From the NCBI GenBank assembly GCA_000002435.2, contig CM018789.1: a DNA stretch of 64,000 nucleotides; one strand, 5' to 3'. Below are positions 8,453 to 33,528 of this stretch, in pieces (positions within the stretch are counted from its first letter, which is position 1; every line of letters begins with the position of its first letter). The DNA comes from Giardia intestinalis (Eukaryota). The notes beneath the pieces are model-generated. The model did not search any database. It worked only from the letters and a program-made list of their open reading frames with translations, and was not told where the DNA came from. The translations under genes were made by a program, and so were the position numbers.

Positions 8453-8497
8453 CGTTTGCTGAAGGCAATCTATCGGCAAAATTCCCTCAAGTAAATC

Positions 8498-10045
8498 ATG
8501 CTGTCTCAAGAGCTAGCCTCAGCAAGCTCTCCAGCCATCTTGGAAGACATACTTACCCTGTACTCTGGTACAAGCAAGGAACAAGTGCGTGCAGCACTTC
8601 GGGATGGCAATACAAAGCGCCTTGAGAAATTGCTTCTAGTTGAGCCTCTAAAGAATCTGTGTCGGATATTTTCATGGATCTTTGCACTCGATCTCCCCAA
8701 AACTATGCTTAAGCAACAAGCTGCTGAGCTGCTGGCCACCAACTGGAGAAGGTGCATGTCCTCCGCATCACGATGGAGTGTCCCAAGCAGCAATGATACA
8801 GCTCTGATGAATGCATATTTGGAGCTAGCGAAGAAGTACAATGTGTCATGGCTCAATTACGTCGTGGAGAAAACAAAAACCAACTTCATTCCATATCGCG
8901 AAATGGCGTTCCACAGCACTTTAGCCACTGGCTTCTCGCCGTACTATAAAGTTATTGCAAACATAGCCATCTTTAGCTTGCTTGGAAAGCCCGATGCAGA
9001 TAAAACTATCGTCCTTGAGATCCCCAAGGAGGTCTGTGATTGCATAGTCAATGATACCGCAGCCAGGATTATTATGTACTCGTTCTACGAGGTGCTTAAA
9101 GACTCCAAATTTCCTGCATTGCAGATCATGCGCTGGGAAGATGTTAAAGCTTCAACGGCAGATCTATCCATTTACGTCAACGGTCAGAAGGTAGTATTAA
9201 CCTCCTTTAAAGCCAAGAACCAAATAGCAATGCTCAAGGCCAAAGATCCTCAAGTCGTTCCCACCTCAACAGACCTGACGGCGCCTATAAAGTACGTCTT
9301 AGAGCAATCCTCATGCGGATATGCATACATAGACTTCAGTATAGCCACATTTCCTGCCCACCCAGACGCAGGGTCAGAGACCTATAAGTACCAAGCCCCC
9401 TACGTAGCACTGTATCTTGCAAAAGCTCTGAGCACAGCCGAAATATACCATCTATTAATGGCTCGGCCTATGCTGACAACCACTAAGCTGAAGCAACTCA
9501 TTCAGGAGAAAGAAACCCTATACGCAAAAGAGTTCTCTACGCTAATCTCCACTTGCACCACTGCCAACATTGAGACTTCAGTGGACACAGCAAAGCCCTC
9601 CGCAACTCCGCCTCTTTTCCTCAATTATGTATCCTTTGTAGACCAAGTGCGCACAGTCTCCAACAATGTCGCACAGACGGACGAGTATGAGAGTGATATT
9701 GAAATTGCTGATGAGCTCATCTACCTTGAGTCACATCTTACTCGAAAGAAAATCAAGATTCCTGTGCGCTCCTCAAACTGTCGCCATTTTAATCGAGTGA
9801 TGGATCTGGAGGAATATATTCAAGGGTGTAAAGAAACCAACTTGTGGAATTGCACTGTTTGTGGAGAGCCTGCTACCTTTGTGCAATTACATATTGATGC
9901 CTTCTATTGGTTCCTTCTTAACATAGTCCGTGTTACCCAAGATGTGATCCATCTGGACACGAACACAGGAGAGATTCAACTGGGAAGCGGGTGTGACGAC
10001 AACTCTGTGTCTTCTCCCAGTGGCTGGTCCTTTGGAGGTGATTAG
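8498..10045 (+). CDS. SP-RING (MIZ-type zinc finger) protein, candidate PIAS/Siz-like SUMO E3 ligase (515 aa)
   Basis: The C-terminal segment IPVRSSNCRHFNRVMDLEEYIQGCKETNLWNCTVCGEPATFVQLHIDAFYWFLL aligns with the SP-RING of PIAS1 ([53 protein letters not shown]). The C-x-H and C-x-x-C zinc ligands are retained. Confidence 0.6.
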   Translation: MLSQELASASSPAILEDILTLYSGTSKEQVRAALRDGNTKRLEKLLLVEPLKNLCRIFSWIFALDLPKTMLKQQAAELLATNWRRCMSSASRWSVPSSNDTALMNAYLELAKKYNVSWLNYVVEKTKTNFIPYREMAFHSTLATGFSPYYKVIANIAIFSLLGKPDADKTIVLEIPKEVCDCIVNDTAARIIMYSFYEVLKDSKFPALQIMRWEDVKASTADLSIYVNGQKVVLTSFKAKNQIAMLKAKDPQVVPTSTDLTAPIKYVLEQSSCGYAYIDFSIATFPAHPDAGSETYKYQAPYVALYLAKALSTAEIYHLLMARPMLTTTKLKQLIQEKETLYAKEFSTLISTCTTANIETSVDTAKPSATPPLFLNYVSFVDQVRTVSNNVAQTDEYESDIEIADELIYLESHLTRKKIKIPVRSSNCRHFNRVMDLEEYIQGCKETNLWNCTVCGEPATFVQLHIDAFYWFLLNIVRVTQDVIHLDTNTGEIQLGSGCDDNSVSSPSGWSFGGD

Positions 10046-10099
10046 AGCCACCTCGCAGGTTCTTGCTCAAATTAAAATAACGTGCACCCAGAGACCTAC

Positions 10100-12418
10100 A
10101 TGCAGGGTGGTCCTCATGCGCAGCCTGATGAACCCTTGTCGCTGAGCCCCACCGCAGACGATATAATTAACATGTATTGCCAGCAGATGAACCTCATGAA
10201 AGAGGAATACGGTAAAAGACTGTCAGAGCTCTATGCGACTGTTAGCAGCTCATTGGAATATGTACAGACTCTTCAAGACATTGTTCCGTATAACAATACA
10301 CAACTATCTAGTTCACGTGCGCCTTCTGGGCCTTCAACCGAGAAGTCTGATGGAGGCGTCACTCCCCAGGGTCACATAGGTTCCAGTATTAGTCAACATC
10401 TACTCAATGTCTTTAGGGAGTCACTCGAATCCGAAAAAGAGCTAAAGATTCAGGTGCTGATGGACGACCTGGCGCGCACAAAGGGCATTGTTAATGTTAT
10501 GGAAAGTAAGCTCTGTGAAAGCATGGGTACTTCCCAGAAGCTAACCAGAGAGCTGGATGAGCACAAGAAGCAGCTGCAGAATACCTCAACCTACACACAT
10601 AGTATCAAAAAGCGTGCCGCAAGCCTGGAGGCGGAGCTCAATTCACTACAACCACAGATCAACTCACTCACTCACCTCCAGGATAAGCTTATAGGTTTAG
10701 AAAAGCGCTCCAAGGCAAAGCAGGACGATTACAAGCGGCAACTTTCAACCCTTAAAGCCGACGTAAGCAAATTGGAATCGGAGAATGCCCTTTTAAAGCA
10801 CGATCAGGTCAATGTTTTTCAATTAAGGAACGAGTTAAATGATCTCCGGCTTAAGTACAATGTCCTGTATAAAGAGTATCAGGAGCTACAGAGCACTCAC
10901 TCCATTGCTCAGTATGATCTGCAGGCAAAGACAAAAACCCTTAGTGCAATGAAGTCAGCTAACACTCATCACATTTTAAAGGAGAAAGCAGCGTCGGATT
11001 CAATAAAATTAGCCGTGGATGCAGAGCTGAAGGACCAGCGCCGGTTGCTGTCAGAACTTGTTGAACAGGTTCGTCAGCAAGGCTCAGATCTCAAGAAATT
11101 GTCGAGCACCTCACCAGAGGAAATGGGAGTGGCTCTGGCAAACATTTTGTCAAAGCACCAGACCAACATTGACCGCCTATCAGTAGCAGCACTGGGCTCT
11201 GGTCAGGTATACTCCGGAGGAACCCCCTTTCATGGGGATCCAAACTATTTATATGATTATACTGGAACACCAGTGACTCAGCAGACCCACATTTCTATTG
11301 CACGACATACAGAGGCCATGAGGGCCCTTGAAGATGAGATTTGGCATAGAGCAGAGTCAAAGTACAAAACCTTGTTATTCAATGCAGAGTCGGACCTTCA
11401 AAGAAGACTCTCAGAAGCCAGGGACGAGTTCTATCAAAAGGAGATACAGCTCAAGAGACAAGTTCAAGAAGCTTTATCCAAAGGGACTGATAAGGTGCAG
11501 GATGAGCTAAGCAAGCTTCGCGAAGAATGTGCAAGTCTCAAGACGCTCTGCAGCCATAAGGACCTAGAAATGGACCGATTGACCCATATGCTAAACGCTG
11601 CACAGGAAGATATCGCCCGTTTCCAAACAGCCAACAGAGATTTACTTCAGTCTGCTGAAAGCTATCGCAATAGTCTGGAGTATTATGAAAACCTTAGTAA
11701 GCAAAGCATTTCTGCAAGAGGATTAATCAAGCTGTGCCATGATGAATTGAAGGAGATCAAGCGCCGCGTTCTAGATCTCAAAAAGACCCAGTTTTCTCCT
11801 TCAGACTGGCGAGAAGAGCAACGAGTTGGTGACGCTGAACTACTCTTCTCAGCCATAGCTGGAGATCTAAAGCTGACTTTCTCAGATGGCGGTTTGGCCC
11901 AGGTCCTTACGCCCATTGGAAACATGATAAAGACCAGTGTGGAGCACATAAAACAGCAGACAATCCGGATTAATGATGAGAAGTGGATGGCACAGATCCA
12001 CCAGATGGAGCGCGACTACGGGGATCAGATTGCATACATTATGAATGACAACGAAAAGCTGAAACAAACAATCATTGCGCTGCGCGAGAGAATGCAGGTC
12101 GAGATGGTTAAGCTTTTGGGAGTAGAGCTCACAGACATGCACGACAGATGCGCTACTCAATTGGATAATTTAAAATATGAAGCCGAAAGCATGAAGACCG
12201 CACTCGATGAATTTCTCAAGAATCGTCCTCATCAGCTTGCTGAGGCACGTTTGATGAGCTCCCCTATCGCACCTGGCCCTGCCTCCAAGGGAACTCCACT
12301 GACTTACAAGACACAGGCCGTCACACCGGGTCTTCTCATAGATGCGACACTCCCCACATTCGTGACTCCAGGAACTGTTCTGGAGCCAGCCACAGAGGGA
12401 AATGGCGGGACGCGGTAG
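10100..12418 (+). CDS. Coiled-coil protein (about 772 aa)
   Basis: The ORF track starts at a GTG (10082). The first ATG is at 10100, 20 nt downstream of aaattaaaataa. Extended heptad repeats. Confidence 0.65.
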   Translation: MQGGPHAQPDEPLSLSPTADDIINMYCQQMNLMKEEYGKRLSELYATVSSSLEYVQTLQDIVPYNNTQLSSSRAPSGPSTEKSDGGVTPQGHIGSSISQHLLNVFRESLESEKELKIQVLMDDLARTKGIVNVMESKLCESMGTSQKLTRELDEHKKQLQNTSTYTHSIKKRAASLEAELNSLQPQINSLTHLQDKLIGLEKRSKAKQDDYKRQLSTLKADVSKLESENALLKHDQVNVFQLRNELNDLRLKYNVLYKEYQELQSTHSIAQYDLQAKTKTLSAMKSANTHHILKEKAASDSIKLAVDAELKDQRRLLSELVEQVRQQGSDLKKLSSTSPEEMGVALANILSKHQTNIDRLSVAALGSGQVYSGGTPFHGDPNYLYDYTGTPVTQQTHISIARHTEAMRALEDEIWHRAESKYKTLLFNAESDLQRRLSEARDEFYQKEIQLKRQVQEALSKGTDKVQDELSKLREECASLKTLCSHKDLEMDRLTHMLNAAQEDIARFQTANRDLLQSAESYRNSLEYYENLSKQSISARGLIKLCHDELKEIKRRVLDLKKTQFSPSDWREEQRVGDAELLFSAIAGDLKLTFSDGGLAQVLTPIGNMIKTSVEHIKQQTIRINDEKWMAQIHQMERDYGDQIAYIMNDNEKLKQTIIALRERMQVEMVKLLGVELTDMHDRCATQLDNLKYEAESMKTALDEFLKNRPHQLAEARLMSSPIAPGPASKGTPLTYKTQAVTPGLLIDATLPTFVTPGTVLEPATEGNGGTR

Positions 12419-12460
12419 TTTACATGGTACACCAAAGCAATTCCAACACAGCAATTAAAG

Positions 12461-14974
12461 CTATACCTCTGTGGTATCCTTAGTCGACGAAGTCAGCCCC
12501 TCTCCTTCTACTTTTGAGGTAGAATGCCCGTTGCTATGTGCTTTCTTCATCCGTCTGCGGTTTGCGAACTCTCGCAAGCGCTCTATAACGCTTGGAACTC
12601 TCTGCCACGTACCTTCGGCTTTACATTTCTTGACATGCTGGCTGTATTTCACACACCGGAAGATAAAGTATCCTGTCAGCGAACCAATGAGCAGAGCTAG
12701 GATAATTGCCAAGCTAGTGTAAACTCCTGTCTCTAAAGCAGATACAGGCTGGTCCCATTTTTCGGGCTGTCTGACGCAGACCCCTGTTTCTGTAAGCATA
12801 TAGCCATCTATGCAGGAATAGAAGCTGCAAAGGTCTTCGTTATACCTGTCCTTTTGGGTATCACATGGATTAGCATAAATCCCCCCTCCCATGGAGGTGC
12901 AATACTTGCTGATTTTCATTTGAAATGGGTAGCACGTTGAGGACGCCTTTTTATAAGCCTCCACGGCCAACGTTAGATATGTGGTATGGTCCATATAACG
13001 TGACCCACCTGGTGGCCAATAATTAATATAATCATCCACCGGATTGTTGACGTACTCCAGCGGCGTCTTGACAGCATCGAAGGGCTGGCTCCAATTCCAT
13101 GAGAAGACCTGCTCGAATGCCCACCGATGTAGAGCTGTTGTGGGAAGCTTTTTGAGTCCAATGTGTGTTTCGTATTGGGGAGCGAAGGAGTCATCGAAGA
13201 TATATTGCGAGTCCATGACGGATCCTCCAGCAAAGCTCGCTACATCCATGTCCACAAAGCGATTCTCAGCATCCGTTTGGTTTCTGATCCTTCGGAGCGC
13301 CGGGTTGCCGCCCATTCCCATCCACACTCCCATGTGGGCCTCTCGCGCCCTCTTCGCAAAACACGCGCATGTCGATCCACAGGTGCCATCGGTAACAAAA
13401 ACGAGGCGCGAATTTCCAGACTCCTGTAGAAACTTTGGCGTCTTGATGTTCACAAGGCGTTCAAAGTCCTCCCGGAAGTCCACCTCATCATAGGCTAGGT
13501 CAAACGTGTAGATTCCGGAGAGGGCTTCCTCGTGCCCCGTCATATAAAGAAGATGCTCTGTCTCGCCTGTGTACCACGCGTTGTTCTTGTAACGCATCCA
13601 ATTACTAAGCCTGTACCTATCTTGCATTGAGAAATTGCCTCGAGAAGAGTAGAACTCCGCGTAGGGCGACTTGCGAACGGTATAGTTACCATACAGTGGA
13701 TTGATGTAGGGCGCAAGAACATGAAGAGTGCGGTATCCCAACGTCACATATCCTCCGCCGTTACGAGCAACATTAACTATCAGGAATGGATCAGCGATAT
13801 GCGTGTTATCAAGAATAGACATGGCAGCTTCGAAATCGTCTACATATTGCTTAGGGCTTTCAGGGGCAAAGGTCGGAATATTAAGGAGGTACCCAACGTG
13901 CTTGGTGTTTTTATAGAGGGAGTAGAGTGTGACATCCACTCCTGAGTGACTTACATCAATATAATACTCGTCTCCGTTATCAGTTAGTATCGGAGAAGCT
14001 TGAGTATGCTGAGTAGGACTTCTCGTACGTTCTTCCATGGTATCACTTAAAAATCTAGCAAGTGGAGTTCCCTGCTTCCCGGTTATCTCCAGAGAACCAG
14101 AGTCAGCGTCAGTGTGCGTATTCATAATGTATGCCTTAAGGTCAGCCACACCCCTGATTTCAGTAGTCACGTAGCCAAAGAAGGGAAGCTCGATGATGGA
14201 ATTGTCAGAGAGCTCAATGGAAAGAACCTCTGTATCCAGTGGACTGCCAGTTCTCCCCGGCCATCCGAACGACCGGAGACTCCTAACATAGAAGTCGGTG
14301 TTCAAGGCAGCATTAAATCTAGCATGTGGGTTTTTAGAGATATAAACCACATCATCTGCAAATCTCTGCATGGCCTCTGCCACAGGTATGCCATTAATAG
14401 ACAAAATGCGCTGGTCGATGAACTGGTCGATGTTGATGCCTTGTTCTCTAAGCTTTTTCCTGTACTCCCAAGTAACAAACTGGTACTCCGGAGGGAGCTC
14501 TGTTAGCGTATACTCCAGGACACGGTTGCGGTATATTGCCGTGACAGTGAGCGGCAAGACAATGCGAATAAAGGAGTATCCCTGTGGCTTGTCATACCGT
14601 GTATGCGGGTCCTTGAGTCTAAGGTAAATGGCTGACACTGCATCATGGAAGTCGAAGTCCGTTGTGTACTCCTCTATGTTATCACGAATGGATTGAAGCT
14701 CTCTTTTGACATCTGTGTGAGGGAGCTTGTACGCGTTTGTAGGGACGTCATATGGGGCAATGGGCTCCTTAGCCATCTCACCAAAGACGTACATTTCACT
14801 TAGTTTGAGAAGTGTGTCGATGGTGGGGTACCCCACGCCGTTCTTGTCCAATGGTATTGAATCGAAGCAGGCACGTAACTGACTGAGCTCAAGAACTTCA
14901 TTCGTGTGAGGGAAGTAGCACGGATCTGTCGTTAAGGCCACAACATACACGAGAAGAAGGCAGCCCAGTCCCAT
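12461..14974 (-). CDS. Type I membrane glycoprotein with signal peptide, large ectodomain, one C-terminal TM helix and a basic cytoplasmic tail. The ectodomain carries a tentative peptidase-S41-like signature
   Basis: N-terminus MGLGCLLLVYVVALTT looks like a signal peptide. A TM helix YTSLAIILALLIGSLTGYFIF lies near the C-terminus. The motifs VNVARNGGGY and LVFVTDGTCGSTCACFAKR resemble the S41 motifs DLRxNxGG and LVxxGSASASE, but Cys or Thr sit where the serines would be. The similarity is weak. Confidence 0.7.
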   Translation of the reverse strand: MGLGCLLLVYVVALTTDPCYFPHTNEVLELSQLRACFDSIPLDKNGVGYPTIDTLLKLSEMYVFGEMAKEPIAPYDVPTNAYKLPHTDVKRELQSIRDNIEEYTTDFDFHDAVSAIYLRLKDPHTRYDKPQGYSFIRIVLPLTVTAIYRNRVLEYTLTELPPEYQFVTWEYRKKLREQGINIDQFIDQRILSINGIPVAEAMQRFADDVVYISKNPHARFNAALNTDFYVRSLRSFGWPGRTGSPLDTEVLSIELSDNSIIELPFFGYVTTEIRGVADLKAYIMNTHTDADSGSLEITGKQGTPLARFLSDTMEERTRSPTQHTQASPILTDNGDEYYIDVSHSGVDVTLYSLYKNTKHVGYLLNIPTFAPESPKQYVDDFEAAMSILDNTHIADPFLIVNVARNGGGYVTLGYRTLHVLAPYINPLYGNYTVRKSPYAEFYSSRGNFSMQDRYRLSNWMRYKNNAWYTGETEHLLYMTGHEEALSGIYTFDLAYDEVDFREDFERLVNIKTPKFLQESGNSRLVFVTDGTCGSTCACFAKRAREAHMGVWMGMGGNPALRRIRNQTDAENRFVDMDVASFAGGSVMDSQYIFDDSFAPQYETHIGLKKLPTTALHRWAFEQVFSWNWSQPFDAVKTPLEYVNNPVDDYINYWPPGGSRYMDHTTYLTLAVEAYKKASSTCYPFQMKISKYCTSMGGGIYANPCDTQKDRYNEDLCSFYSCIDGYMLTETGVCVRQPEKWDQPVSALETGVYTSLAIILALLIGSLTGYFIFRCVKYSQHVKKCKAEGTWQRVPSVIERLREFANRRRMKKAHSNGHSTSKVEGEGLTSSTKDTTEV

Positions 14975-19045: not shown

Positions 19046-20290
19046 TTATGCCCCTGGCGGTAGCAGCTCATCACTGGACTCTGTCAGCAGACAGTTCTCC
19101 TCTGCTGCTACTCCCTCACCACTAAGGCCACAAAGACGCTGAGCTTCTGCCTCACACAGGCCTCGGTAGCGCAAGGCCTTCTGGCCAAGGCTGGAGGAGC
19201 AGAGCTGCTCCAGGACCCTTTGTCCGTTCAAGCTCTCTGTTTTATAGCTACTGTACAAGGCAATCCACGGGGCATTCTGCAATATGCTTTGCACAGTCTC
19301 GCCCAATTGAGGGACAGGGATGTCCATTCCAGAAAGTGAGGCATGATGTACGAGCTGGCGCTGCTTAAGGCTATTGTCAGTAATCCCCGGGTTCTTAATG
19401 ATCTCTAGAATGATACGCATGGCTAGTACACGGCCCAGCAGAGAGGGTCCGCCGATGCGGATGTGCGGGATATCGTCGTCCCCTAAGCTCACCCCACCGT
19501 CGGCTCTCTTTGTAATGACAACAGTACCCTTACGTCCGAGTAAAGCCCCGCCACCACGCAGCTGCAGTTCTGTTCCTGTCAGTGTCTGAAGTTCTCTCTG
19601 GGTGCTAGCCTGCGGTCCAAGTAAAAGCCCACTGTAGTTAACTGTATTTGTCCCCCCTACAGATTGCGGAAAATAGATGCAGATGGGCGGCAACTGGGTA
19701 GACCTTAAGTTTAATGATGGAATGAAGAATGGGTTTCCACGTTGAAAAGAGCTCTCTGTAGCGACATACTGTTGCAAAGATAGGTAGTGTAAAGATAAAA
19801 GACGGAGGCGATCCGGGGAGAGAGCGGTTGAAGAAGACAAGTATCCGGAAAGGCCGTCGACTGAAGAGGTAAGAATTGAAGTAAAGCCAGCTGCTATGTT
19901 AGGGTGTGCCGGATTAGCTAGGAATGCTCCATAAGGGGCATCTTCCTGCAAAATTGCTCTGTGTCTCATTCGTAAAAAAGCCTCAGTAATACGTAGATGG
20001 CTTTGAACAGCAGTAAGCTGAGCCTCCGTAAGGTAGTTTGGAATTCCCTGTGGCATGTGCTCAGAATAGACTGACTTGTTATTTGCGGGGGCAATGACCG
20101 GCGTTGGCTGTCCGAACGGACGCTTTGGACAAGAAACATACTTTTTGTAACTGAAGCGAGCTGCTGAGGGCTTGTGTGAAGAGGCTGCGAACTCTTTGGG
20201 TTTGGCTACCACTAGATGAGCAGATAAGTTGTAAGAGTCCATTACTAATCCTAAATCAGTTTTTTGATGACATACATGTTGTCTCAACAT
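19046..20290 (-). CDS. Hypothetical protein (414 aa; alternative start at the ATG at 20242)
   Basis: Long ORF with coding codon bias. The second in-frame ATG (MDSYNL, 20242) is preceded by the A/T-rich tcatcaaaaaactgatttagg. Confidence 0.5.
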   Translation of the reverse strand: MLRQHVCHQKTDLGLVMDSYNLSAHLVVAKPKEFAASSHKPSAARFSYKKYVSCPKRPFGQPTPVIAPANNKSVYSEHMPQGIPNYLTEAQLTAVQSHLRITEAFLRMRHRAILQEDAPYGAFLANPAHPNIAAGFTSILTSSVDGLSGYLSSSTALSPDRLRLLSLHYLSLQQYVATESSFQRGNPFFIPSLNLRSTQLPPICIYFPQSVGGTNTVNYSGLLLGPQASTQRELQTLTGTELQLRGGGALLGRKGTVVITKRADGGVSLGDDDIPHIRIGGPSLLGRVLAMRIILEIIKNPGITDNSLKQRQLVHHASLSGMDIPVPQLGETVQSILQNAPWIALYSSYKTESLNGQRVLEQLCSSSLGQKALRYRGLCEAEAQRLCGLSGEGVAAEENCLLTESSDELLPPGA

Positions 20291-20621
20291 AGTGGTGACG
20301 CGCGCAGTAGACCTTAGTGGTTACATGACTCAGCAGTCTTCTGTGAACAAGAGCTTAGCACTGCTGGGTTCACTTTATCTTGGCAGACGGCTTCATGACG
20401 AGCCGCAGCATCGACTCCATGGCTTGTTGCAAGAACACCGCTGGCCAAGAGCACTGTACAAGAGAATTGGCACCACGAGCACATTAATATAGAAGTGGCT
20501 GATGGACAAGACTAGGGAGACTCTCTGGCCACTGACACTGTTCGTTGTTATTGCAATCCACATTACAATATTATTAAACCCCTGTTCGTGTTGAGTACGC
20601 TCGCGGCGAACCGCCAGCTAG

Positions 20622-21230
20622 ATCGATAAGTGCGAAATAGTCGGTGACGCAGAGATCTGCACCCAGTGCAACGGAGATGGGTCTCAATCTGCCCCGACGG
20701 ACGGAGTGTGCTCAGCAGACAATAACGAGTGTACCCGGAAGCAAGATGGGAAGTGCACACAGTGCGCTAATAGGTCCTTCATGTACAAGGGCGGATGCTA
20801 CAAGGATAGCCAGGCACCTGGCAACACGATGTGTGAAGCAGCAAATGCTGGAGTATGCACACAGGCTAAGGAAGGGTACTTCCTGCTACCAGACGCAGAC
20901 GACTCTCACCAGTCGGTCATACCGTGCGGAGATGACACAGTAGTAACAGTTAGCGGCGATAAGAAGTACAAGGGCGTGCTGCACTGTACTTAGTGTAATA
21001 CACCTGACGCAGCACAGGATACTACTACTCCCAAGGCTGCCACTTGCACGACCTGTGAGGATGGTTTCTTTGTAGATAGTAGTAATAGATGCACTGCTTG
21101 TCCGGAGAACTGCCTGACCTGCACTGGTAAAATAGTCAAGGAAGAAGCCGACGGGGCAACTGCTTACATTGCTACTAATGACTGTATTCAACTTTCTAGT
21201 GAAGGCCCAATCTTTTTAATCCCCGTCTCT
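20622..21230 (+). pseudogene. VSP (variant-specific surface protein) pseudogene fragment: 5'-truncated, one in-frame TAG, 3'-truncated
   Basis: The reading frame from 20622 gives ...CTQCANRSFMYKGGCYKDSQAPGNTMCEAANAGVCTQAKEGYFLLPDADDSHQSVIPCGDDTVVTVSGDKKYKGVLHCT*CNTPDAAQDTTTPKAATCTTCEDGFFVDSSNRCTACPENCLTCTG. This is collinear with the N-terminal third of the intact VSP at 31678-33528 (CGSCKDGYFMYKSGCYNSGGSPGNEMCTSAPEGKCSTPAAGYFIIPTTDADASHQSVVSCSD...KIYKGVEGCAECT). There is no ATG or signal peptide, no TM helix and no CRGKA tail. The frame is broken by a TAG at 20991. Confidence 0.7.
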
Positions 21231-21914
21231 GAGGGGTTTGTCGTCTCCTGTTTCTATCTGCAGCCGCGCCGGGGACAGAGCGGCTCTCGCGGGGCCAGGC
21301 ACCTGGTGTCCTGGGCGGCGCCGGGTCTGAGTGGGTATGCGCCTTCAGCACTGTGGGCGTCCCCCGTCCCTCTCCTGTACAAGGGATCGGTGATGCGTAC
21401 CCCCTCGGTCTGCGTGCGGTTGTCAGTGCCCGTGCCTCGTGGTACCCCGGCTCTTTCAGCCCCAGCTGTCGTGGCGCCCTGCTCCGGCCATATCCCCACG
21501 AGGCCGCGTATTCTTCCATGGGACGGTCCTGGTTCCGTAGAGGCACGCCTGGGCCCACGATTCTCCCTGCGGAGGCCCCGTTGTCTGTGCTACTGGGGTC
21601 TGGGCCATCCGTCTGTACCGCTGCTTCAGGAGTCACATGAGTAAACTGCCTTTCACGTGGCTTTTTATAGAAGTAGACACTGATTGTAATCAACAGGGTC
21701 TAAAGATCTCTCGCCAATTGTACATGTCAGATCCTGTGGATTTTGGAATCCTTGGGTAGCATCCGTGCCCGGCTGATACGCGCGCCTCGGGCTCAGCAAG
21801 CCTGCCGCCCTCCTCCTCTTGCCCCCTGCGAGGACGCCGCCACTGGCTAGGCGCGTGCACAGCTTGTCCATCCGGCCCTTGAGAAGAGCCACATCACACG
21901 AGGAAGGGCGTCGT

Positions 21915-22721
21915 TTACTCGAGGAGAGAGGCGATTGCGTCGTGGCCATGCCTCCTTGCGATGTCGAGGGCGGTGGTGCCGGGCGGGAAGCCGAACCACT
22001 CACGGGTGGTCTGCATGCCCTTCTCCTTGTCCATCAGGAGCCTCGCACACTCCAGGCGGCCACTCTGCGCTGCATGCATGAGCGCTGTCCATCCATTGTT
22101 AGTCTTCATGCCGTCTTCTTTGTCTATTAGAAGCCTCACGCAGTCCGAGCAACCGTTGTCGGCTGCGTGCATGAGGGCAGTCCACCCACTGTTGGCCCTC
22201 ATTCCGCATTCCTTGTCCAGTAGAGCCTCCGCACACTCACAGCGCCCATACTGTGCTGCATACATTAGGGCGGTCTTCCCATCATCCGTTTTCATGCCAC
22301 CCTCCCTCTCCAGGAGGAGCTGCACGAACTCCAGTTTGCCGCGCTGTGCTGCGTACATAAGGGCAGTGGTGCCGTTGTTCCTCCTTTTGCTGCCTTCCCT
22401 CTCCAGCAGGAACTTCGCGCATTCCGGGTGGCCCCCGTACGCCGCCCGCATGAGCGCGGTCTCTCCAAGCTTATTCTGTGTGCTACCTTTCATCTTCAGC
22501 AGAACCTTCACGGCTCTCAGGTTTCCATACTCTGCTGCTGACATGATGTCGGTCTCGACGAAGCCGTATTTCAGCAACAAAAAAGACGAGAGACTCAGCC
22601 CGCTCCTCCCTTGTTGGTGGTAAAACTCTGCGGCTTCATCGATGCTCCTATCAGAAGCAGACCCCTCGGTGTCCTGAGAGCGACGACTCATTTCCGAAGC
22701 CCCAAGCACGTCGCTCGACAT
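21915..22721 (-). CDS. Ankyrin-repeat protein of the Protein 21.1 family (about 268 aa)
   Basis: About six repeats of 33 aa of the Giardia type (TALMxAAxxGxxExVxLLxxxEGG). The ORF track starts at a TTG (22871) inside GC-rich DNA. The first ATG (22721) is preceded by the initiator aagttaaaaATG. Confidence 0.8.
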   Translation of the reverse strand: MSSDVLGASEMSRRSQDTEGSASDRSIDEAAEFYHQQGRSGLSLSSFLLLKYGFVETDIMSAAEYGNLRAVKVLLKMKGSTQNKLGETALMRAAYGGHPECAKFLLEREGSKRRNNGTTALMYAAQRGKLEFVQLLLEREGGMKTDDGKTALMYAAQYGRCECAEALLDKECGMRANSGWTALMHAADNGCSDCVRLLIDKEDGMKTNNGWTALMHAAQSGRLECARLLMDKEKGMQTTREWFGFPPGTTALDIARRHGHDAIASLLE

Positions 22722-22879
22722 TTTTAACTTCGTCTGCTTGCAGGAAGACACTGCCACGGAAACACACACTTTGCTCTCTACTTCATTGAGAACGGTTTGC
22801 CAACTGCTGTCCGAGCATCTCCGTGGGAGCCGCCGCGCTGGGTGGGTCTCCGCTCGCCGTCCGGGGTCCAAATCCAGAG

Positions 22880-23940
22880 TCCGAGGTCGGATGCCCTCGA
22901 TCCCGGCGGAAGAAGAACTCCTATGTCTGCCTCCCCTGGAAGCTGCCGCTCCTCGCGGTGCCCCCTAGGACTTTCCTTCCTTTGGCTAGCTTGGGTCAGC
23001 TCCGTCTGATATCTAGTGAGCACCTGCTATCTCGGATCTTGCGTCAGTCGCGACGATCTGGCCTCCACAGAATCCAAGGCCCTGGTGCTCCATGACGAAG
23101 ATCCCACGCCACGACCCCGGGTGTCCACCCCGTTCCTCGGGGTGCCTCTTCGTCTCCTCGTGGAGGGCACCATCTGTTCCATTCTCAAGGGTGCGCTCCC
23201 CATGCGCCTCTATCTTGAGGTTGTGGTACGCGTTTGTGGATGCCGGCGGAGCACTCCCATGCGTTGTGTCGGGGGAGAGGCCCACCTCTCTGCTCATGGA
23301 TCGCAGAGGTGGTCTGTCACCCAGCACGAGATCATGTCGACGCCCACCCTGTGCAGTGCGTCTGGCTCGGCTGACAGTGTGAGCTGCGTCCATCTGACAG
23401 CACACTTGGAGATGATGCTTCGGTCTGTCGAGGCAGTCAGTCCAGGGCCACCCCTCTGAAGGGTGTCATATGAAGTATCAAGAGCGATCAGGACAGGTTC
23501 ACCGAAGTCGTCTCGCTTGGCGCTCATCTACTCGAGGGTGTCAGGCACTGCCAGCTGCTGCGGCAGACCCTAGGTAGGTGACCCAGACCACCACTCTCGG
23601 TGCGGGCAGGATCAGTCCGCCTCTGCCAGCCAAGCACCCCAACTCCCATCTCTTGTCGAGGGATTCACATGGGTCACGTGTGGATCCATCTCGACCAGCG
23701 TGACAAGTGATTAGTGCCATCACTGGCTTCAGGCTCTCCGTTGCCTTGGGCGTTCCTTGAGACCAGCCAGGAAGGAGGCCTCCTGCTTCTCAGTGTTCCT
23801 ATACTTGTCAGTGTTGACCGTCGAGCCATGTCGCTTCATCAGGCCTGCCGCCTCTGTGGCTACCCCCGTTGCGTCACTGTCGTCACTGTAAAAGATGAGT
23901 GTGTCGTCAGTGTAGGCAATGAGCTTGAAGCGGCTCACTA
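22880..23940 (-). mobile_element. Possible degenerate, 5'-truncated non-LTR retroelement remnant containing a reverse-transcriptase motif-C fragment
   Basis: The short minus-strand ORF at 23729-23938 encodes LIAYTDDTLIFYSDDSD, a tandem Y-x-D-D pattern that matches the RT active-site motif followed by hydrophobic residues. The surrounding 1 kb is GC-rich (unlike nearby genes) and lacks any long ORF, consistent with frameshifted decay. The extent is uncertain. Confidence 0.3.
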
Positions 23941-24207
23941 GACAGCGGCTGATTCAGAGAAGATTAAATAAAGAGAAGGTAAGATTCTTGGAAAGTTAAG
24001 ACGAGAAGTAAGATATTGGCTCTCAGCGTATAGAAACACAAAGTTCCTTCTTTCTTGCCGGAGCTGGATCGCATCCAAATGCTAAATCCTGAATTCCAAA
24101 TTCTGGACTTTTAAACAAACGAAGATGCTATCTGGAATGACAATTCAACTGGGCAGCAACTGGAAAGCCCGTCATAATGAAGCAGAGTAATTCAGTAGTG
24201 CAATTTA

Positions 24208-25716
24208 TTAAGCAAAATACCGATTCTTCTCGATGTCAGCAACAAAGAGCACTCTGTCCTCGCTGCACAGATAAACAGTGTCGATGGTAGGGTAGTCGAT
24301 GAAGTTCCCGTTCATGAGGGCCACCCCTGTCTCGGCCAGAATCGGGTTAACAAGGGGGAGGTACTTATCTAGAAGAAGACGCTTCAGTAGGGGAACAGGG
24401 TCGTCCATCCCTTCGCTGTGCTTCTTGGTGGCGATATCGTACACATCAAGGAACTCTACATATGCACGAACTTGGTCATTGGCAAACCCGTAGGTAAACT
24501 TCTTAAGCTTGACCGCAGAAGAGAAGAGCACGTCGCCCTCAAGGTTGGCCAGAGTTACAGAAGTTTGGTCTGAACTCTTGCTGGCTGTCACAGAGAGGGC
24601 CCCCGTGAGGTTGACCGGTAGTGTAGCCGCCCCGATCCACGGTATGTGGGGTGCGGCATCCTTGGAGGGACTGATCGATAGAGTCAAGGTGACCCCGAGT
24701 CCAAGGTCGCTAACACTGCTTAGTAGTCCGGCCTTCACAAGGGCCTCTGCAAGACCGGGTATGTTCTGCCCCCTGATGGTGCTGTACGGGACAGTGAGAC
24801 TATCTGCCTTGAACTTGTCATACGCCACATGCCAGGCATACAGGTAGGAGTTAACTGATTCCCTGTCTACATAGAACTCATAGTCTCGGTCGGTGTAGAC
24901 CGTCTTCGGAGGGGGAGAGGTGATCTTGTTTGGATAGAGAGCTCTAACCGACCAATCTGGGACAGTGATGATCATTGAAAAGCCACCCTGGTCTGCCACT
25001 ATCTTGTTATCGACGACATTGATGCCGTTGATGTAGCGCTGGTCAGTCAGATAGTCGTCGATCTGGACAACTAAGGGCAGGTTGAGCATTGACTGCTTTA
25101 TTGAATTGAAGATTGTGTTAAAGAGGAGCTGCAGCACAGTGTCCTTTATTAGGGTCTCCAACGTGGGGGCCATGCCTTGGATGGCAGTTGCAAGGACAGA
25201 GCCCCCTGTGTCGAGTCCGATGGCATCGATGTCAAGCCCAGACGAGTACACGACGTTCGATATCTCGGAGAGCCCGAAGTGGTACGGGCAGGTGGGGTCG
25301 TCTCCGAGCCTCAGAGAGATGTCTGCCCCGAAGTCCTTGAGGGTGAATATGCAGTCGACGGTCCCGGTGATCCCGGTGATGACTGCCTTGAGTCGCATCG
25401 AGATCTGCATGAGTCCGTCCCGGGCCTCCATCTTGACAAAGTTGTTATCTTGCAAATAAACCTTCATGGTTGAAACACGCACTGCACGGGGTCTGATATT
25501 GGAGAGAGTAATCTGCAAAGTCCCGACAGTTATGGGTATCTCTGGAAACGCTGGAAGACCAGAAATAATGTCAGGAATGATAGAGTAGCCCTTCTGGCAG
25601 AACTTCTCCAGCCCACGTCTGGTGAAGCGCATTCCCATTCCATGTTCAGGTTCGTTAGTAAAAGGTGTACCCAGGGCACATCCCAAAGTAATAGAAAATA
25701 GTAGTAGTATTAGCAT
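24208..25716 (-). CDS. Secreted protein with N-terminal signal peptide, tentatively BPI/LBP/CETP-like lipid-binding (502 aa)
   Basis: N-terminus MLILLLFSITLGCALG looks like a signal peptide. The region after it (RRGLEKFCQKGYSIIPDIISG...VKMEARDGLMQISMRLKAVITGITG...LRLGDDPTCPY) resembles the start of the BPI N-terminal barrel in spacing and in its single Cys pair. The call is tentative. Confidence 0.6.
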   Translation of the reverse strand: MLILLLFSITLGCALGTPFTNEPEHGMGMRFTRRGLEKFCQKGYSIIPDIISGLPAFPEIPITVGTLQITLSNIRPRAVRVSTMKVYLQDNNFVKMEARDGLMQISMRLKAVITGITGTVDCIFTLKDFGADISLRLGDDPTCPYHFGLSEISNVVYSSGLDIDAIGLDTGGSVLATAIQGMAPTLETLIKDTVLQLLFNTIFNSIKQSMLNLPLVVQIDDYLTDQRYINGINVVDNKIVADQGGFSMIITVPDWSVRALYPNKITSPPPKTVYTDRDYEFYVDRESVNSYLYAWHVAYDKFKADSLTVPYSTIRGQNIPGLAEALVKAGLLSSVSDLGLGVTLTLSISPSKDAAPHIPWIGAATLPVNLTGALSVTASKSSDQTSVTLANLEGDVLFSSAVKLKKFTYGFANDQVRAYVEFLDVYDIATKKHSEGMDDPVPLLKRLLLDKYLPLVNPILAETGVALMNGNFIDYPTIDTVYLCSEDRVLFVADIEKNRYFA

Positions 25717-26543
25717 ATCGATGTGTCAGTGGAGTTATCTAGCAAACTTAATTTTTAATAAATTTAACTATGCAGCACAGAATGCACTGGTTCGCATACC
25801 TCTTACGCTCATTCTGTTTTTAGGAAACATCATGGTCACTTTCAGGAAGACAAAGTAATTGTCTGCATGCTACGGGTTGAACACTAAGCATTCTTATGTT
25901 CGACATACAAAAGATTAGTATCAATAGTATGATCATTATTCACCACACGCATGGCTACTTACCCTAAGACCTTATCAGCTTGGATTGTGCTTTTCTGGTA
26001 ATTACTTAGCGCCATCGAGTGCACCTATTTACGAAGGCAGACTAAATCGTACAAGGCATTAGCTTTGAGCTTATAAGCGCTATAACTTCTGATGGATGAT
26101 TTCATACAGTATGCCCTGTTGTTCTGATGGAGCACTCAATATACCAGACAGATGATTTAGCATGGTATCTCTGCAAACCATATTTACTATTATACTTACG
26201 CACGCGCCCATGCATAAGATAGTATCGTGCTGCGTAGTACAATAAAAGCAGACATATCTTACTTATTCCTGTATTGCAGGAACGTATCACCTGACAATCA
26301 ATGTCACTGGACAAAGAGTTTGTGTGAAGGTATATGTACTTGTATATGAACCTATTAGAAGCAAACACTCGTGGCTCGTAGAGATATTTACAAATAAATT
26401 AGCTTAATGATTCATTATATTATTAAATTCTTGTTAGTAGGCTGTCTAGTGGGAGTGTAGTCGAGTTCACCAACTGCTGGATTGTTCTCACTTGAAAGAC
26501 ACGCCAGGGAGTCCTGCAATGTGTGGTTGGAGTCACTATGTGC

Positions 26544-29029: not shown

Positions 29030-29650
29030 GCTTTGCTGATGGGACCCTCGTCTGGGTGTGGTCCAGAGGTCTCACGAGTGACCCTCGCTCAATTCCTGGC
29101 CAGTCCGGAGACAAAGGTCGACTTTGGATAATATAACGAGAGAGTCCTCTCCAATGATATGTCCAGAGCCTGGTGCGCTCCTCGGTCGTTCCACAAGCGT
29201 GTGCTCAGACCGAATGCGTACATCGGTCCTTTAGGGGTTCAGCTTACTTACCCATCTGCGTCGTCCACCAGTGGCGCCTCTCCTTGGTCTTCCTTCACGG
29301 TGGGTGAAGCTCTGGTCGCCGTCTTTTTTAGATGCTCCCGTCTGACTCGGTGATTGCTGTCGGGGCTCTCCACTGGCCGCCCCTCGGTGTCCATCCGGCT
29401 GTGGTTCTGGGCAGTGGTCCCACAGTCGCGGTTACCTGGGTCCCAGTGGGCCAGCTGGTGGGGAGGCTGGGGTTGCTGGGGCGGTGAGGCCGGAGGGGAC
29501 TGGTGGGACCGGGGGCGGTGTTCATATGTGCCCCTGGGTCTGGTGGGCCATTGGGGTGGTGGGGTGATCGCAGCTGTGGTGACTGGGGGCTGTCCATCTG
29601 TGACTCACCCCTCTGTGTGCTCGTGGTCTGTGAGTGCCTCCACCCAGACA
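29030..29650. repeat. Left arm of a large inverted repeat. Core 29163-29404 is 100% identical to the reverse complement of 31272-31513
   Basis: Compared directly base by base. The outer and inner flanks are alignable but diverged, with indels. Confidence 0.85.
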
Positions 29651-31009
29651 ACACTCAGGAGCCGTGCACACCGGGACAGAGAGGGTGACCAAGGGGAGTC
29701 AAGCAGCCCTGCCATGAGAGTGCACAGCAACCAGCCTGAGCTGTAGAGTCTGCTCGAGCGATGGTAGTGGCAGACGACTCCCTCTGACAGCAACCCTGGT
29801 GACTGCACTGGTCTGCTCTCGAGGCTGAGTGACAGTGTGCACAGATGGACATGAGTGCAGGAGGACCATCCACACACGAACAGACTGTGTGGACCCAGAG
29901 AGGACTGGAGTCTGCTCGGGACACGCTGACTGTGCCCCGTACGAGAGTGTCAGGCAACCACCCGAGCACCCGAGAGGCAGCAACAGACACGGGCACTAGA
30001 GATCCCCAGCCAGACACATTGCTATGCCCATCCACAGGGGCATCAGAAGGCCAGGTGGGGTCACCCTCACAACCAGGACCTGATAGGAAGCCAGAGGACT
30101 CAAACACTACAGCAGAGCAGGCCCAAGGGAGGCACACTCCAGGCAGGCGAGCAGTGGCAGAGCCTTGATAGCTGCCATCCACCCCCATGACACCTATAGC
30201 AGGCACCAGACTCACCGAAGGCTCCGCTGGCCTCCACCGATGACCCGAGGGGACAGCGACCAGAGGAGTGAGGAGACCTTCGGATGACACAAGAGGCCGG
30301 CTGTCCAGCAAGCGATGGAACACAGGTGACCTCTGAGCACCATAAGGCACAGAGCCAACCATCAGAGTGATGCCCGATCACAGAGACGACCACGAGCACC
30401 CTCCACCGCACTCTGAGGGGCTGTCAATCATCCCACTGCCTCTCATAGCAGACCTCCTTAAGGGCAGTGCAGTGGGGCCCAGCTCATGCAGGGAGGTGCA
30501 CACCCCTCAGTATAGGACACCCCGGCTCTCCCCGAGGGGTCATCAGAGCCACGAGGAGGTGTCAAGGTCCTGGTAGACCACACCGAGAACTCCCGAACAG
30601 GCACAGCAGGTGATGTTGGGTGATCCTCAGCGTGCTCCTCTCTGATGGTAGAGCATCCTGAGACCAAGGGGGCTCACCTCTGCCTATGAACAACACACAG
30701 CACTCCACAACGAGGATCCACCAGGAGCAGCACAGCTGACCACGGGGACAGTGCAGCCACCCGGTACCCCACCGTGCCAGTCTTCTGGGCCATCACACTA
30801 GAGGCCTGAGAGAACCCCATCCCATCCACAGGGTCATCCATGCCCCTGCTAGCCCGAGGTGAACTACCCCCGTCGAGGCACTGGACAGGGCATGCCAGGG
30901 GCCCAGCAGACCCGCACAGAGCAACAGGAGAGGCTACGATAGCCTGCCTCACCCTTCACGTACTAGTCAAACAGAGAGGTAGTACTGCCTGAGGCATGCA
31001 GAGGCCAAG

Positions 31010-31650
31010 GGAGGCGCTCAGTCAGGGGGACACGACACGATCGTCGGTGTCTGTGTCTCGGGAGTGCAACGAAGGCTGGGGATCAGACACAACCACCTTG
31101 GCAAACAGAGCGGGGATCACCCACCACCCCAATGGCCCATCAGACCCAGGGGCACATACAGACATCACTCCCAGTCCCCTCCAGCCCTCACCGCCCCATA
31201 CCCCGCCTCACCCATCATCCGAACCCGCTGGGACCCAAGCGACCGCGACTGTAGAGCACTGACTCGAGCCACAGCCGGATGGACACCGAGGGGCGGCCAG
31301 TGGAGAGCCCCGACAGCAATCACCGAGTCAGACGGGAGCATCTAAAAAAGACGGCGACCAGAGCTTCACCCACCGTGAAGGAAGACCAAGGAGAGGCGCC
31401 ACTGGTGGACGACGCAGATGGGTAAGTAAGCTGAACCCCTAAAGGACCGATGTACGCATTCGGTCTGAGCACACGCTTGTGGAACGACCGAGGAGCGCAC
31501 CAGGCTCTGGATGTATCACTGGAGAGGATTCTCTCGTTATATTATTCACAACCAGCCATCGTCTCTGGACTGGTCAGGAAGGAGCGATGATTACCCACAC
31601 GATCTCTGGACCGCGCTCAGATAGCCCCAGCAGCACATCTACATAGGCTA
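31010..31650. repeat. Right arm of the inverted repeat. Ends about 15 nt from the VSP polyA signal
   Basis: Reverse complement of the left arm. The short ORFs 29328-29654 (-) and 31064-31345 (+) end with the identical peptide ...GGQWRAPTAITESDGSI, which confirms the mirror symmetry. Confidence 0.85.
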
Positions 31651-31677: not shown

Positions 31678-33528
31678 TTACGCCTTCCCTCTACATATGA
31701 ACCACCAACACAAGAAGCCTATGAGACCACCTACAACAACAATCACAGCAACGGAGATCCCTGCTATGGCCCCTGTGGAGAGGCCACTCTTGTTTGTACT
31801 ACCACCGGTGTTATCATCACCACCACTAGTGCCGTCTGTTTTGACATAGCAAGTAACAGAGCCACTACCACCAGCCGGAGGAGCGCAGCTTATGCAATTA
31901 GGCACACCAACTATTCCGTTGGCACTAGCATCACACTTCACGCAGCTACTTCCGGACTTATAGTATCCGGGGAGGCATTCTGAGCATGCTTTGGGACTAC
32001 CACTAGTCGCGCACTTTGAGCACCCATCCGGACACGCCGGGCAGGAACCCGAAGTGGTATCTGCTGCTTGCCCATTGGCACATGTCTGGCACTTTCCATC
32101 GCTAGCCGTTGTGCACAGCGTATTACCCGGAAAGGCTCCGGCGCTGTAGCACCCACCCGATTGCAGGAAGTATGAGCCTGTACACGCAGTACATACTCCG
32201 TCACCCGGCGTGCATCCAGTCGGCGCCCTTGTCGTTGTCGACACACAGACGCCGTCCACTGGGACGTATCCGGCCTTGCACCTGCTGCAGTACTTGGAGC
32301 CACCTACGACGGCCTTGCACTGGTCAGCCTCGCAGTTCTCTGCGTACCTTCCCGTGCACTCTTTTATGCACGCTCCTGTGTCACCAGACGACCGATTCAG
32401 CACAGACCCCGGATAGCAGGCCGTGCACGACGCTTCTGCGTCATTGCTACAGCTTGCGCACGACTCGTGGCAGGGGGTGCACACCTTGCTGTTGGCATAC
32501 ATCCCGGCAGGGCAGGCTGTTAGACACGCGTCCTTCAGGGGGCTCAGGTTGTGAGTGGTGCACTCAGAGCACGTGATTAGTGGGCCTGCGCTTGCAGGAG
32601 TTGCCTTGAGAGAGCACTTTGCACAATCCTCTATGCCACCATTGACAGTATCGCTGCACTTAGCACACACCTTCTTGCCCTGTGCATCGGCTGTGGGGAA
32701 GAATCCATCCTTACACTCCTCTGCGCTAACACAAGAGGTTGTCCCCGATTCTGTCTTCAGATATTTGTCTTGATCACATTTTTCACAGACAACCTTAGTA
32801 TCATATGTGCATTTGACACAATTTGGCACCCCTGTCGCGGCTGGAATTAAGCTTGCTTCAGGCGAACTACACGACTGGCAAGTCTTTAGCTGCTTTCCAC
32901 TTGTTGCTGTGTGCCCGAAGTATCCTTCCGGGCATTCAGTCAGACATGCAGTTCCACCTTCGATTGGGGCGTGTAGAAAGTCAGTCGTACACTTAGTACA
33001 GGTCGCGGTGGTAGCTAAGTTATCTAGTGTGCATTCAGCACATCCTTCCACGCCCTTATAAATCTTGTCGCTTTTCCCGTTCGCTCCCTCACTGTCACTG
33101 CACGACACGACAGATTGATGAGAGGCGTCTGCATCTGTTGTTGGAATGATGAAGTATCCAGCTGCAGGAGTGCTACATTTTCCTTCAGGTGCACTAGTAC
33201 ACATTTCGTTCCCTGGAGAACCTCCCGAATTATAGCATCCGCTTTTGTACATGAAGTATCCATCTTTACAAGATCCGCACTTTCCTTCAACTGGATCAAT
33301 GCACTTCGTATTTGCTTGATCCGTTGCACTCACTACACACGTTCCGTCAACAAGGTGTTCGTTATCCACGGAACATTTTGAGCAATAAGGCTGTTCTCCT
33401 ATGGATACATCACAGTGACCCTTTTTACACTTAGTAGTGTCATGAGTCCCCGGATTTCCATCATCTTCCAGGCACGCTGCCCAAGCCAATTGCAATATGC
33501 AGTTTGCGAAGAGAATTTTTTCGAACAT
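31678..33528 (-). CDS. Variant-specific surface protein (VSP), intact (616 aa)
   Basis: N-terminal signal peptide MFEKILFANCILQLAWAA. Dozens of CXXC motifs and GGCY motifs. C-terminal TM helix followed by the invariant CRGKA-stop tail (...FLCWWFICRGKA*). AGTAAAC polyA signal 7 nt after the stop. Confidence 0.95.
   Translation of the reverse strand: MFEKILFANCILQLAWAACLEDDGNPGTHDTTKCKKGHCDVSIGEQPYCSKCSVDNEHLVDGTCVVSATDQANTKCIDPVEGKCGSCKDGYFMYKSGCYNSGGSPGNEMCTSAPEGKCSTPAAGYFIIPTTDADASHQSVVSCSDSEGANGKSDKIYKGVEGCAECTLDNLATTATCTKCTTDFLHAPIEGGTACLTECPEGYFGHTATSGKQLKTCQSCSSPEASLIPAATGVPNCVKCTYDTKVVCEKCDQDKYLKTESGTTSCVSAEECKDGFFPTADAQGKKVCAKCSDTVNGGIEDCAKCSLKATPASAGPLITCSECTTHNLSPLKDACLTACPAGMYANSKVCTPCHESCASCSNDAEASCTACYPGSVLNRSSGDTGACIKECTGRYAENCEADQCKAVVGGSKYCSRCKAGYVPVDGVCVSTTTRAPTGCTPGDGVCTACTGSYFLQSGGCYSAGAFPGNTLCTTASDGKCQTCANGQAADTTSGSCPACPDGCSKCATSGSPKACSECLPGYYKSGSSCVKCDASANGIVGVPNCISCAPPAGGSGSVTCYVKTDGTSGGDDNTGGSTNKSGLSTGAIAGISVAVIVVVGGLIGFLCWWFICRGKA

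Follow-up and report, generated by a model that had tools for sequence, protein, structure and literature searches.

In R2-type retrotransposons, which lack long terminal repeats (non-LTR elements), the endonuclease is located C-terminal to the reverse transcriptase (RT), after a CCHC knuckle, and R2 itself is specific for ribosomal DNA. Giardia WB is described as having three families of retroposons, "two telomeric, one dead" (GilM, GilT and GilD), and RT is encoded by only two of these. The RT genes of Giardia form G+C-rich islands (PMC3091692), and GilM is 5,474 bp long (PMC7000408). The chromosome-scale WB reference published in 2020 contains annotated psi-RT features ("reverse transcriptase remnant") that are spread over the interior of the chromosomes, in regions with many VSP, ankyrin-repeat (ARP) and NEK genes (Xu et al., Sci Data 7:38, PMC7000408). 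The present analysis concerns a stretch of 64,000 nucleotides of Giardia intestinalis DNA (contig CM018789.1 of the assembly GCA_000002435.2; hereafter, the window) and, within it, the minus-strand segment 22770..23932 (1163 bp, 59.8% GC). This segment very probably represents a dead Giardia non-LTR retrotransposon that is truncated at its 5' end; in elements of this type, a single open reading frame (ORF) encompasses RT, a CCHC knuckle and a restriction-like endonuclease.

A preliminary description of this DNA had pointed to a minus-strand peptide at 23879..23938 in which YTDD is followed by YSDD, and had interpreted the tandem as the catalytic box of RT. Both boxes are present on the minus strand (YTDD at 23914-23903, YSDD at 23890-23879), within a stop-to-stop segment of 74 amino acids (23732..23953, sequence ISRCLVSRFKLIAYTDDTLIFYSDDSDATGVATEAAGLMKRHGSTVNTDKYRNTEKQEASFLAGLKERPRQRRA). 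The flagged stretch aligns with an RT fragment from Giardia P15, P0002 (KLIAYTDDTLIFYSDDSDATG against RLIAYADDILIFHSDNSDATG, 61% identity, E-value 6e-12). The YTDD box is in register with the YADD of P0002, P0010 and P0013 whereas YSDD is opposite the non-conserved HSDN, HNDL or a gap in the relatives, so that no duplicated catalytic box is indicated. By these alignments, YTDD is the genuine catalytic motif C of RT, and YSDD an accidental look-alike produced by decay, not a second catalytic box; it originated through H-to-Y and N-to-D changes within a non-conserved loop. Accordingly, the tandem survives only in its first half. Boxes of the form [YF]xDD occur 11 times in the six-frame translation of the window, compared to 7.5 +/- 2.6 in block shuffles, and two such boxes at most 15 residues apart are found in 2% of the shuffles. 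A lone box is common by chance, and the case must therefore rest on homology. Two other statements of the preliminary description hold as made: the peptide is located at the edge of GC-rich DNA (59.8% GC in 22770-23932, against 40.0% in 23933-24207 and 48.8% in the whole window), and it is not followed by an intact ORF. The longest start-to-stop ORF in the flagged segment (69 amino acids, 23729..23938) starts with GTG and is simply the tail of the RT palm; there is no intact ORF on its 3' side.

A Pfam search started with the 74-residue segment aligns its residues 8-62 with positions 146-201 of the 205 positions of the RVT_1 profile (PF00078), with an E-value of 7.8e-5 and a score of 22.9 bits; this part of the profile corresponds to motifs C, D and E. 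No RT match was obtained in nine other minus-strand segments. Motifs D and E are in register with those of bona fide RTs (GSTVNTDK versus GLTINxDK, and SFLAG versus SFLGA, respectively), so that the RT palm remnant, all in a single frame, spans 23741..23932 on the minus strand. A word-indexed protein search with the 74-residue query returned no match. An exhaustive HMMER (phmmer) search identifies two true relatives, P0001 and P0002, both Giardia RT fragments (E-values 1e-7 and 8e-6). P0002 ends with ...RLIAYADDILIFHSDNSDATGTIAEATTLARRYGLTINIDK; P0001, another decayed copy, runs on into KPVMALITRHAG, and the corresponding stretch of the window is in a different frame. When P0002 is used as the query, only short Giardia fragments of 102-200 amino acids are retrieved (P15, G. 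duodenalis, ENA contigs). In a tblastn search, the RT fragments (P0001, P0002, P0009 and P0010) match the window from 23926 to 23741 in one frame and from 23753 to 23694 in another, with E-values between 1e-13 and 4e-8, and the identity of the window peptide to this decayed family is 61-69%. With the intact Giardia RT/endonuclease proteins as queries, the signal is much reduced. A frameshift-aware protein-to-DNA local aligner, custom-made for this analysis and calibrated with shuffled queries, aligns residues 426-477 of the intact protein P0013 with a score of 62, compared to 40 +/- 4.9 for shuffles, and motifs C-D are the only part of the intact family with a significant match in the window; identity to P0013 over the same stretch is about 30%. 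A tblastn search of the window with the full-length intact proteins yields only low-complexity, proline-rich noise. A separate weak tblastn match of several RT fragments at 19823-19984 on the minus strand (EAFLRMRHRAILQ against EAFLRLRHAAHLD, E-values 0.08-3) was judged to be due to chance; the matches to EAFLRLRHAAHL at this site fall inside a 414-residue ORF (19046..20290) in which Pfam shows no RT domain.

The homology continues past the palm. The RT thumb remnant (KPVMALITCHAG ... LVEMD ... ESLDKR ... GGLGHLP) maps to 23537..23753 on the minus strand, where the second tblastn frame begins. Frameshift-aware alignment of P0009 and P0010 extends from 23926 to about 23537, through the collinear thumb (z of 17-18), and requires some 4-5 frameshifts in the thumb stretch, from which about 18 internal codons are also deleted. 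The thumb alone is marginal, being matched by 5-7 of 200 shuffles, and is further backed by DNA identity to the loci L004, L005 and L007. The remnant of the CCHC knuckle and the restriction-like endonuclease (QMDAAHTVS.. RRHDLVL .. GTDGALHEETKRH) is located at 23127..23396 on the same strand and was recognized through L007, a copy from Giardia P15. This copy retains the CCHC knuckle and a restriction-like endonuclease (CVLCGARMDANHIVNC...MRHDAIL...QKPDLFLPD...AVDIGV...PIILGTDGTL), and its positions 6380-6758 align with residues 656-784 of P0013 (z 12.6, matched by none of 100 shuffles). The pseudo-protein translated from L007 aligns with the window from 23396 to 23127 with a score of 101, compared to 32.4 +/- 4.7 for shuffles (none of 300), and to scores of 33-40 in the controls, namely the other strand and three other GC-rich stretches. 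This alignment includes about 7 frameshifts and skips the KPD-bearing stretch along with most of C-x2-C; the KPD catalytic motif seems to have been lost by deletion of the stretch that carried it. It places RRHDLVL at the RHD motif, not at PD. The catalytic residues of the endonuclease (the CCHC cysteines and KPD...D...K) are not preserved in the window, a hidden Markov model (HMM) of the intact CCHC/endonuclease domain has no match in the relic among all 2389 six-frame segments, and frameshift-aware alignments of the intact thumb and endonuclease regions to the window are not significant (z of -0.8 and 1.4, respectively). Given that neither the intact-domain alignments nor the HMM are significant, three motifs noticed by eye (RPKHHLQVCC..., EPDALHRVGVDM... 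and AYHNLKIEAH) were dropped as evidence. Nevertheless, RT followed by the CCHC knuckle and a PD-(D/E)xK-type endonuclease, collinear and on the same strand, is the R2-like order, here in the form of a remnant. The three sense frames of the relic contain 38 stops in total, and there are about 12 frameshifts over its length; therefore, the relic cannot encode anything, and a function is considered ruled out.

The extent of the relic was delineated by DNA comparison with independent copies, for which E-values are as low as 6e-156. A blastn search aligns the window from 23884 to 23248 with the ENA contig L004; the match spans 672 bp at 78% identity and stops only where that contig ends. The collinear chain on L007 consists of six blocks, at window positions 23924-23754, 23747-23717, 23700-23654, 23487-23316, 23261-23082 and 23054-22903, which correspond to L007 5708-7006 with 69-77% identity. 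Gapped extension of the chain carries the similarity further: a local alignment of window 23000-22770 with L007 6905-7199 has a score of 60, compared to 20.7 +/- 2.9 for shuffles, and the counterpart of this region in the DH isolate (contig L009, 10241-10326) aligns with L007 7103-7199 with a score of 41, the shuffle maximum being 25. The minus-strand segment 22770..23126, which includes a blastn match to L007 6600-7006, is thus the non-coding 3' terminal segment of the element. The homology ends at about 22770, with GAGAGCAAA in the window and GAGAGTAAA in L007, without an A-tract, some 50 bp upstream of the ATG of an ankyrin-repeat gene. These terminal sequences resemble the Giardia polyadenylation signal, AGTRAA. 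At the opposite end, five other copies remain mutually alignable upstream of ...GAGATACCCGAGGCTCAT whereas the window turns into unrelated AT-rich DNA at about 23927-23942, and tblastn with the fragments P0004-P0008, which cover RT motifs 1-B upstream of motif C, detects no match in the window. The N-terminal half of the RT is absent, and the relic is 5'-truncated. In a self-comparison by blastn (20800-24300 against the window), no direct repeats were found other than the ankyrin repeats, as expected of an element without LTRs.

These results bear out most of the preliminary description. The RT similarity does extend beyond the 17-residue peptide (the RVT_1, phmmer and tblastn matches, the last with E-values down to 1e-13); the homology switches between frames, as proposed; endonuclease remnants, suggested as something to look for downstream, are present at 23396-23127; and the 5' truncation is apparent from both the unmatched upstream fragments and the junction at about 23927-23942. 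The proposed extent, down toward about 22900, agrees with the end of the L007 chain at 22903 and was slightly conservative given the alignment to about 22770. Taken together, homology, truncation, changes of frame and the endonuclease remnant support the original reading of a 5'-truncated, frameshifted non-LTR retrotransposon relic.

The most plausible history of this locus follows from the class of the element. The RNA of the element would have been copied into the chromosome from its 3' end by target-primed reverse transcription, and copying would have stopped just upstream of RT motif C unless the 5' part was lost later. Abortive target-primed reverse transcription usually leaves a 5'-truncated copy. 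We infer that neutral decay followed, with the accumulation of the frameshifts and stops, internal deletions and the loss of the KPD segment of the endonuclease. The relic is now functionless. Several observations weigh against this interpretation or parts of it. The RVT_1 score, 22.9 bits, does not reach the gathering score (29.6); only about one quarter of the profile is left, which is why the score is low, as expected for a fragment, and the segment is a remnant, not a member protein. The identification of the thumb and the endonuclease depends on a better-preserved intermediate copy, L007, whose own homology to the window is evident in the DNA. The 5' part could have been lost by a later deletion rather than through incomplete reverse transcription. 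A poly(A) tail was not recognized in this old copy, and neither was a target-site duplication, for which no search was made in view of a divergence of roughly 25%. Finally, the name GilD, discussed next, was assigned by elimination and from statements in the literature.

The intact Giardia RT/endonuclease proteins P0013-P0016 (883-973 amino acids, typically about 950) are 64-72% identical to each other. The fragments of the relic family, in contrast, show only 27-37% amino acid identity to these proteins, and all members of this family that were retrieved (L002-L009 and P0001-P0010) are either fragments of 102-214 amino acids or disrupted; the observation that there are only dead copies applies to this sample of members returned by the databases. 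By these sequence comparisons, the lineage of the relic is distinct from that of the intact proteins. P0013-P0016 are probably GilM and GilT (Genie 1), and the relic then most probably belongs to GilD, the "dead" third Giardia family, an assignment that we infer by elimination and from the literature, the comparison with GilD being by description. GilD was reportedly described by Arkhipova and Morrison (2001, PNAS 98:14497) as a dead non-LTR family of Giardia lamblia WB. It would correspond to Genie 2 (Burke et al. 2002, MBE 19:619), which reportedly carries an inverted repeat of its 3' end at the 5' side. An inverted copy of the 3' terminus, about 121 bp long and 86-87% identical, is found upstream of the truncated RT in two better-preserved relics from P15, L007 (5114-5234 and 7083-7203) and L002 (7768-7892). 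This upstream arm is missing from the window relic, where only a pair of 22 nucleotides with 77% complementarity and no flanking inverted repeat of any weight was found; the window keeps only the homologue of the 3' arm, at about 22870-22770. The missing arm is compatible with 5' truncation. In another isolate, a locus of G. duodenalis (L003, GCA_000498735.1, AHHH01000176, positions 8001-14419) contains three RT elements arranged head-to-tail on one strand, namely two members of the decayed family, both disrupted (8001-10125 and 10673-12500), followed by an intact RT ORF of 582 amino acids that belongs to the other lineage (12671-14419). Therefore, in that isolate, copies of the dead family share an array with an intact element.

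Alternatively, the relic could derive from one of the telomere-associated families that are still intact (GilM or GilT) rather than from a separate dead family, after a copy had landed in, or been moved to, a chromosome-internal site and decayed; this is very unlikely. The architecture by itself would fit, given that P0013-P0016 have the same succession of RT, CCHC knuckle and restriction-like endonuclease, and the labeling of these proteins as GilM or GilT is not certain. However, the gap between the identity of the relic family to the intact proteins and the identity among the latter is too wide to be bridged by neutral decay of 11-15% per copy, which cannot convert one lineage into the other. 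The window peptide itself shows 61-69% identity with the decayed family and about 30% with P0013, and there are no telomeric repeats in the window.

A member of the relic's neighborhood from another isolate sheds light on the age of the insertion. Contig L009 of DH (assemblage A2) is syntenic with the window from 30000 to 18000, with 92-95% identity, and has the same flank-to-relic 5' junction, which is uninterrupted; therefore, insertion and truncation are older than the divergence of the WB block from the DH block. The DH protein shares 93.0% identity with the product of the window's upstream gene and 94.2% with another WB paralogue; the blocks are either orthologous or paralogous. Along the alignment, the identity between WB and DH is 92-95% in the flank (24300→23901), 82-93% in the 5' third of the relic (23900→23603), 62-75% in the interval of about 23600→22873, and 88-95% from 22872 onward. 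The interval of low identity (window 23600-22873 against L009 9115-10219) includes about 300 extra bp in DH, and the 3' half of the DH copy is closer to the P15 copy L007 (78% identity over 803 bp). This mosaic suggests exchange with another copy (gene conversion) or local rearrangement among dispersed dead RT copies. An improbable, although not negligible, extension of this observation is that ectopic gene conversion or recombination still uses such dispersed dead copies as active substrates. If it were true, exchange between dead copies would be one of the forces behind the breaks in synteny and the segmental duplications that surround clusters of VSP, ankyrin and NEK genes. In a weaker variant, the 3' terminus of the relic, 50 bp from the ankyrin ATG, could have been co-opted as the promoter of the ankyrin gene.

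Co-option in general, be it as a small protein of 69 amino acids, as promoter or 5' sequence of the ankyrin gene, or as a source of small RNAs, is very improbable. The 3' terminus of the relic abuts the ankyrin gene, the junction regions are conserved at 88-95% in the DH block, and small RNAs from Giardia retrotransposons have been reported in the literature, albeit from the telomeric families. Yet the interior of the relic diverges far faster than the flanks (62-75% versus 92-95% identity), which is the opposite of constraint; moreover, there are stops in all frames, no Rfam family match, and the 69-residue ORF starts at GTG. A chance YxDD peptide in GC-rich non-coding DNA without RT ancestry, for which one could cite how often [YF]xDD boxes arise by chance (11 observed, 7.5 expected), the Pfam score below the gathering threshold and the failure of the intact-endonuclease profiles, is refuted for all practical purposes by the tblastn and DNA matches (E-values 1e-13 and 6e-156) and by homology that persists for 1.1 kb and involves several independent loci with RT, in the collinear order of RT, thumb and endonuclease.

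The genomic setting of this dead retrotransposon copy is chromosome-internal and non-telomeric: no telomeric (TAGGG)n repeats were found in the window, and the upstream neighbor is encoded on a 1.49-Mb contig. This neighbor (24208..25716, minus strand) is a protein of 502 amino acids whose sequence matches GL50803_00113130 from G. intestinalis WB C6 exactly, and it identifies the host genome as WB. The intergenic segment between its stop codon and the truncated 5' end of the relic (23933..24207, 40% GC) lies outside the element, has no match to any RT locus, and is 92-95% conserved in the syntenic DH block. Downstream of the relic, there is an intact ankyrin-repeat gene (21915..22721, minus strand; 268 amino acids from the first ATG; Pfam Ank_2, E-value 1.9e-78). 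More broadly, the relic is bordered by a VSP pseudogene fragment and the ankyrin gene on one side, and by a BPI-like gene and a NEK-type kinase/ankyrin gene on the other. An Rfam search of 20500-26000 yielded no match.

Some additional features of these surroundings are worth recording. The region 20706-21900 is a Cys-rich, VSP-like pseudogene fragment that passes into DNA of about 59% GC without a clear ORF; within it, the plus-strand segment 20994-21641 has a weak match to PF03302 (E-value 3e-4, profile positions 266-315 of 397). GL50803_00113130 itself has no Pfam match at an E-value of 0.01, and a DH member of its cluster is named lipid-binding serum glycoprotein (BPI/LBP-like) domain protein. 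Its close WB paralogues, GL50803_112938, _112630 and _61453, are 89-97% identical, and the genes surrounding the relic thus seem to form part of a segmental duplication. Look-ups of WB paralogues retrieved nothing that would show the relic travelling with such a duplication. Farther upstream, at 29093-31580, there is a block of about 2.5 kb with approximately 60% GC, a strong AT skew and no ORF longer than 240 amino acids. It is bounded by inverted repeats of 327 nucleotides that are 94% complementary (29093-29419 and 31254-31580), includes a second inverted pair (29505-29563 and 31120-31178), and directly adjoins a VSP gene that is intact (minus strand, 31678..33528; match to PF03302 with an E-value of 9.5e-90). 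This block has no Pfam match and no DNA match to the RT loci.

The value of these results is mainly in annotation: the locus deserves either masking or a psi-RT label, as a dead non-LTR relic, probably of GilD, and the ORFs of 69 and 130-150 amino acids inside it should not be called genes. RT motif C and the extent of the relic were predictable from the sequence alone. The mosaic of the WB and DH copies is a mildly interesting by-product, a hint that dispersed dead copies may undergo exchange where VSP, ankyrin and NEK genes make up rapidly evolving neighborhoods.

Among the known systems, the 5'-truncated, "dead on arrival" copies of L1-like elements provide a mechanistic analogy for the relic. 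With the R2-type elements, the relic family shares the order of RT, CCHC knuckle and endonuclease, although no target specificity is evident for the relic. GilM and GilT have this domain order in common with the relic family, too (RT motifs, thumb, CCHC knuckle, and restriction-like endonuclease with PD...D...K), and are likewise G+C-rich, but the amino acid identity is in the low range given above (27-37%), and these elements are intact and form head-to-tail subtelomeric arrays whereas the relic is solitary, internal and non-coding, with about one fifth of the length of a full-length element. The psi-RTs of the WB reference occur in the same type of VSP/ankyrin/NEK neighborhood as the relic, which however is not located between a divergent pair of VSP genes, the arrangement stressed in that work (PMC7000408). 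GilD has the same host, WB, a chromosome-internal location and the same non-LTR RT/endonuclease class; like the relic, all retrieved copies of the relic family carry frameshifts, stops and internal deletions and belong to a lineage separate from the intact families. The upstream inverted arm is absent in the window copy, as would be expected after its removal by 5' truncation, and none of the features compared contradicts membership in GilD. The relic, a psi-RT of a dead non-LTR family, is thus a feature of a familiar kind, and the genome that harbors it is well studied.

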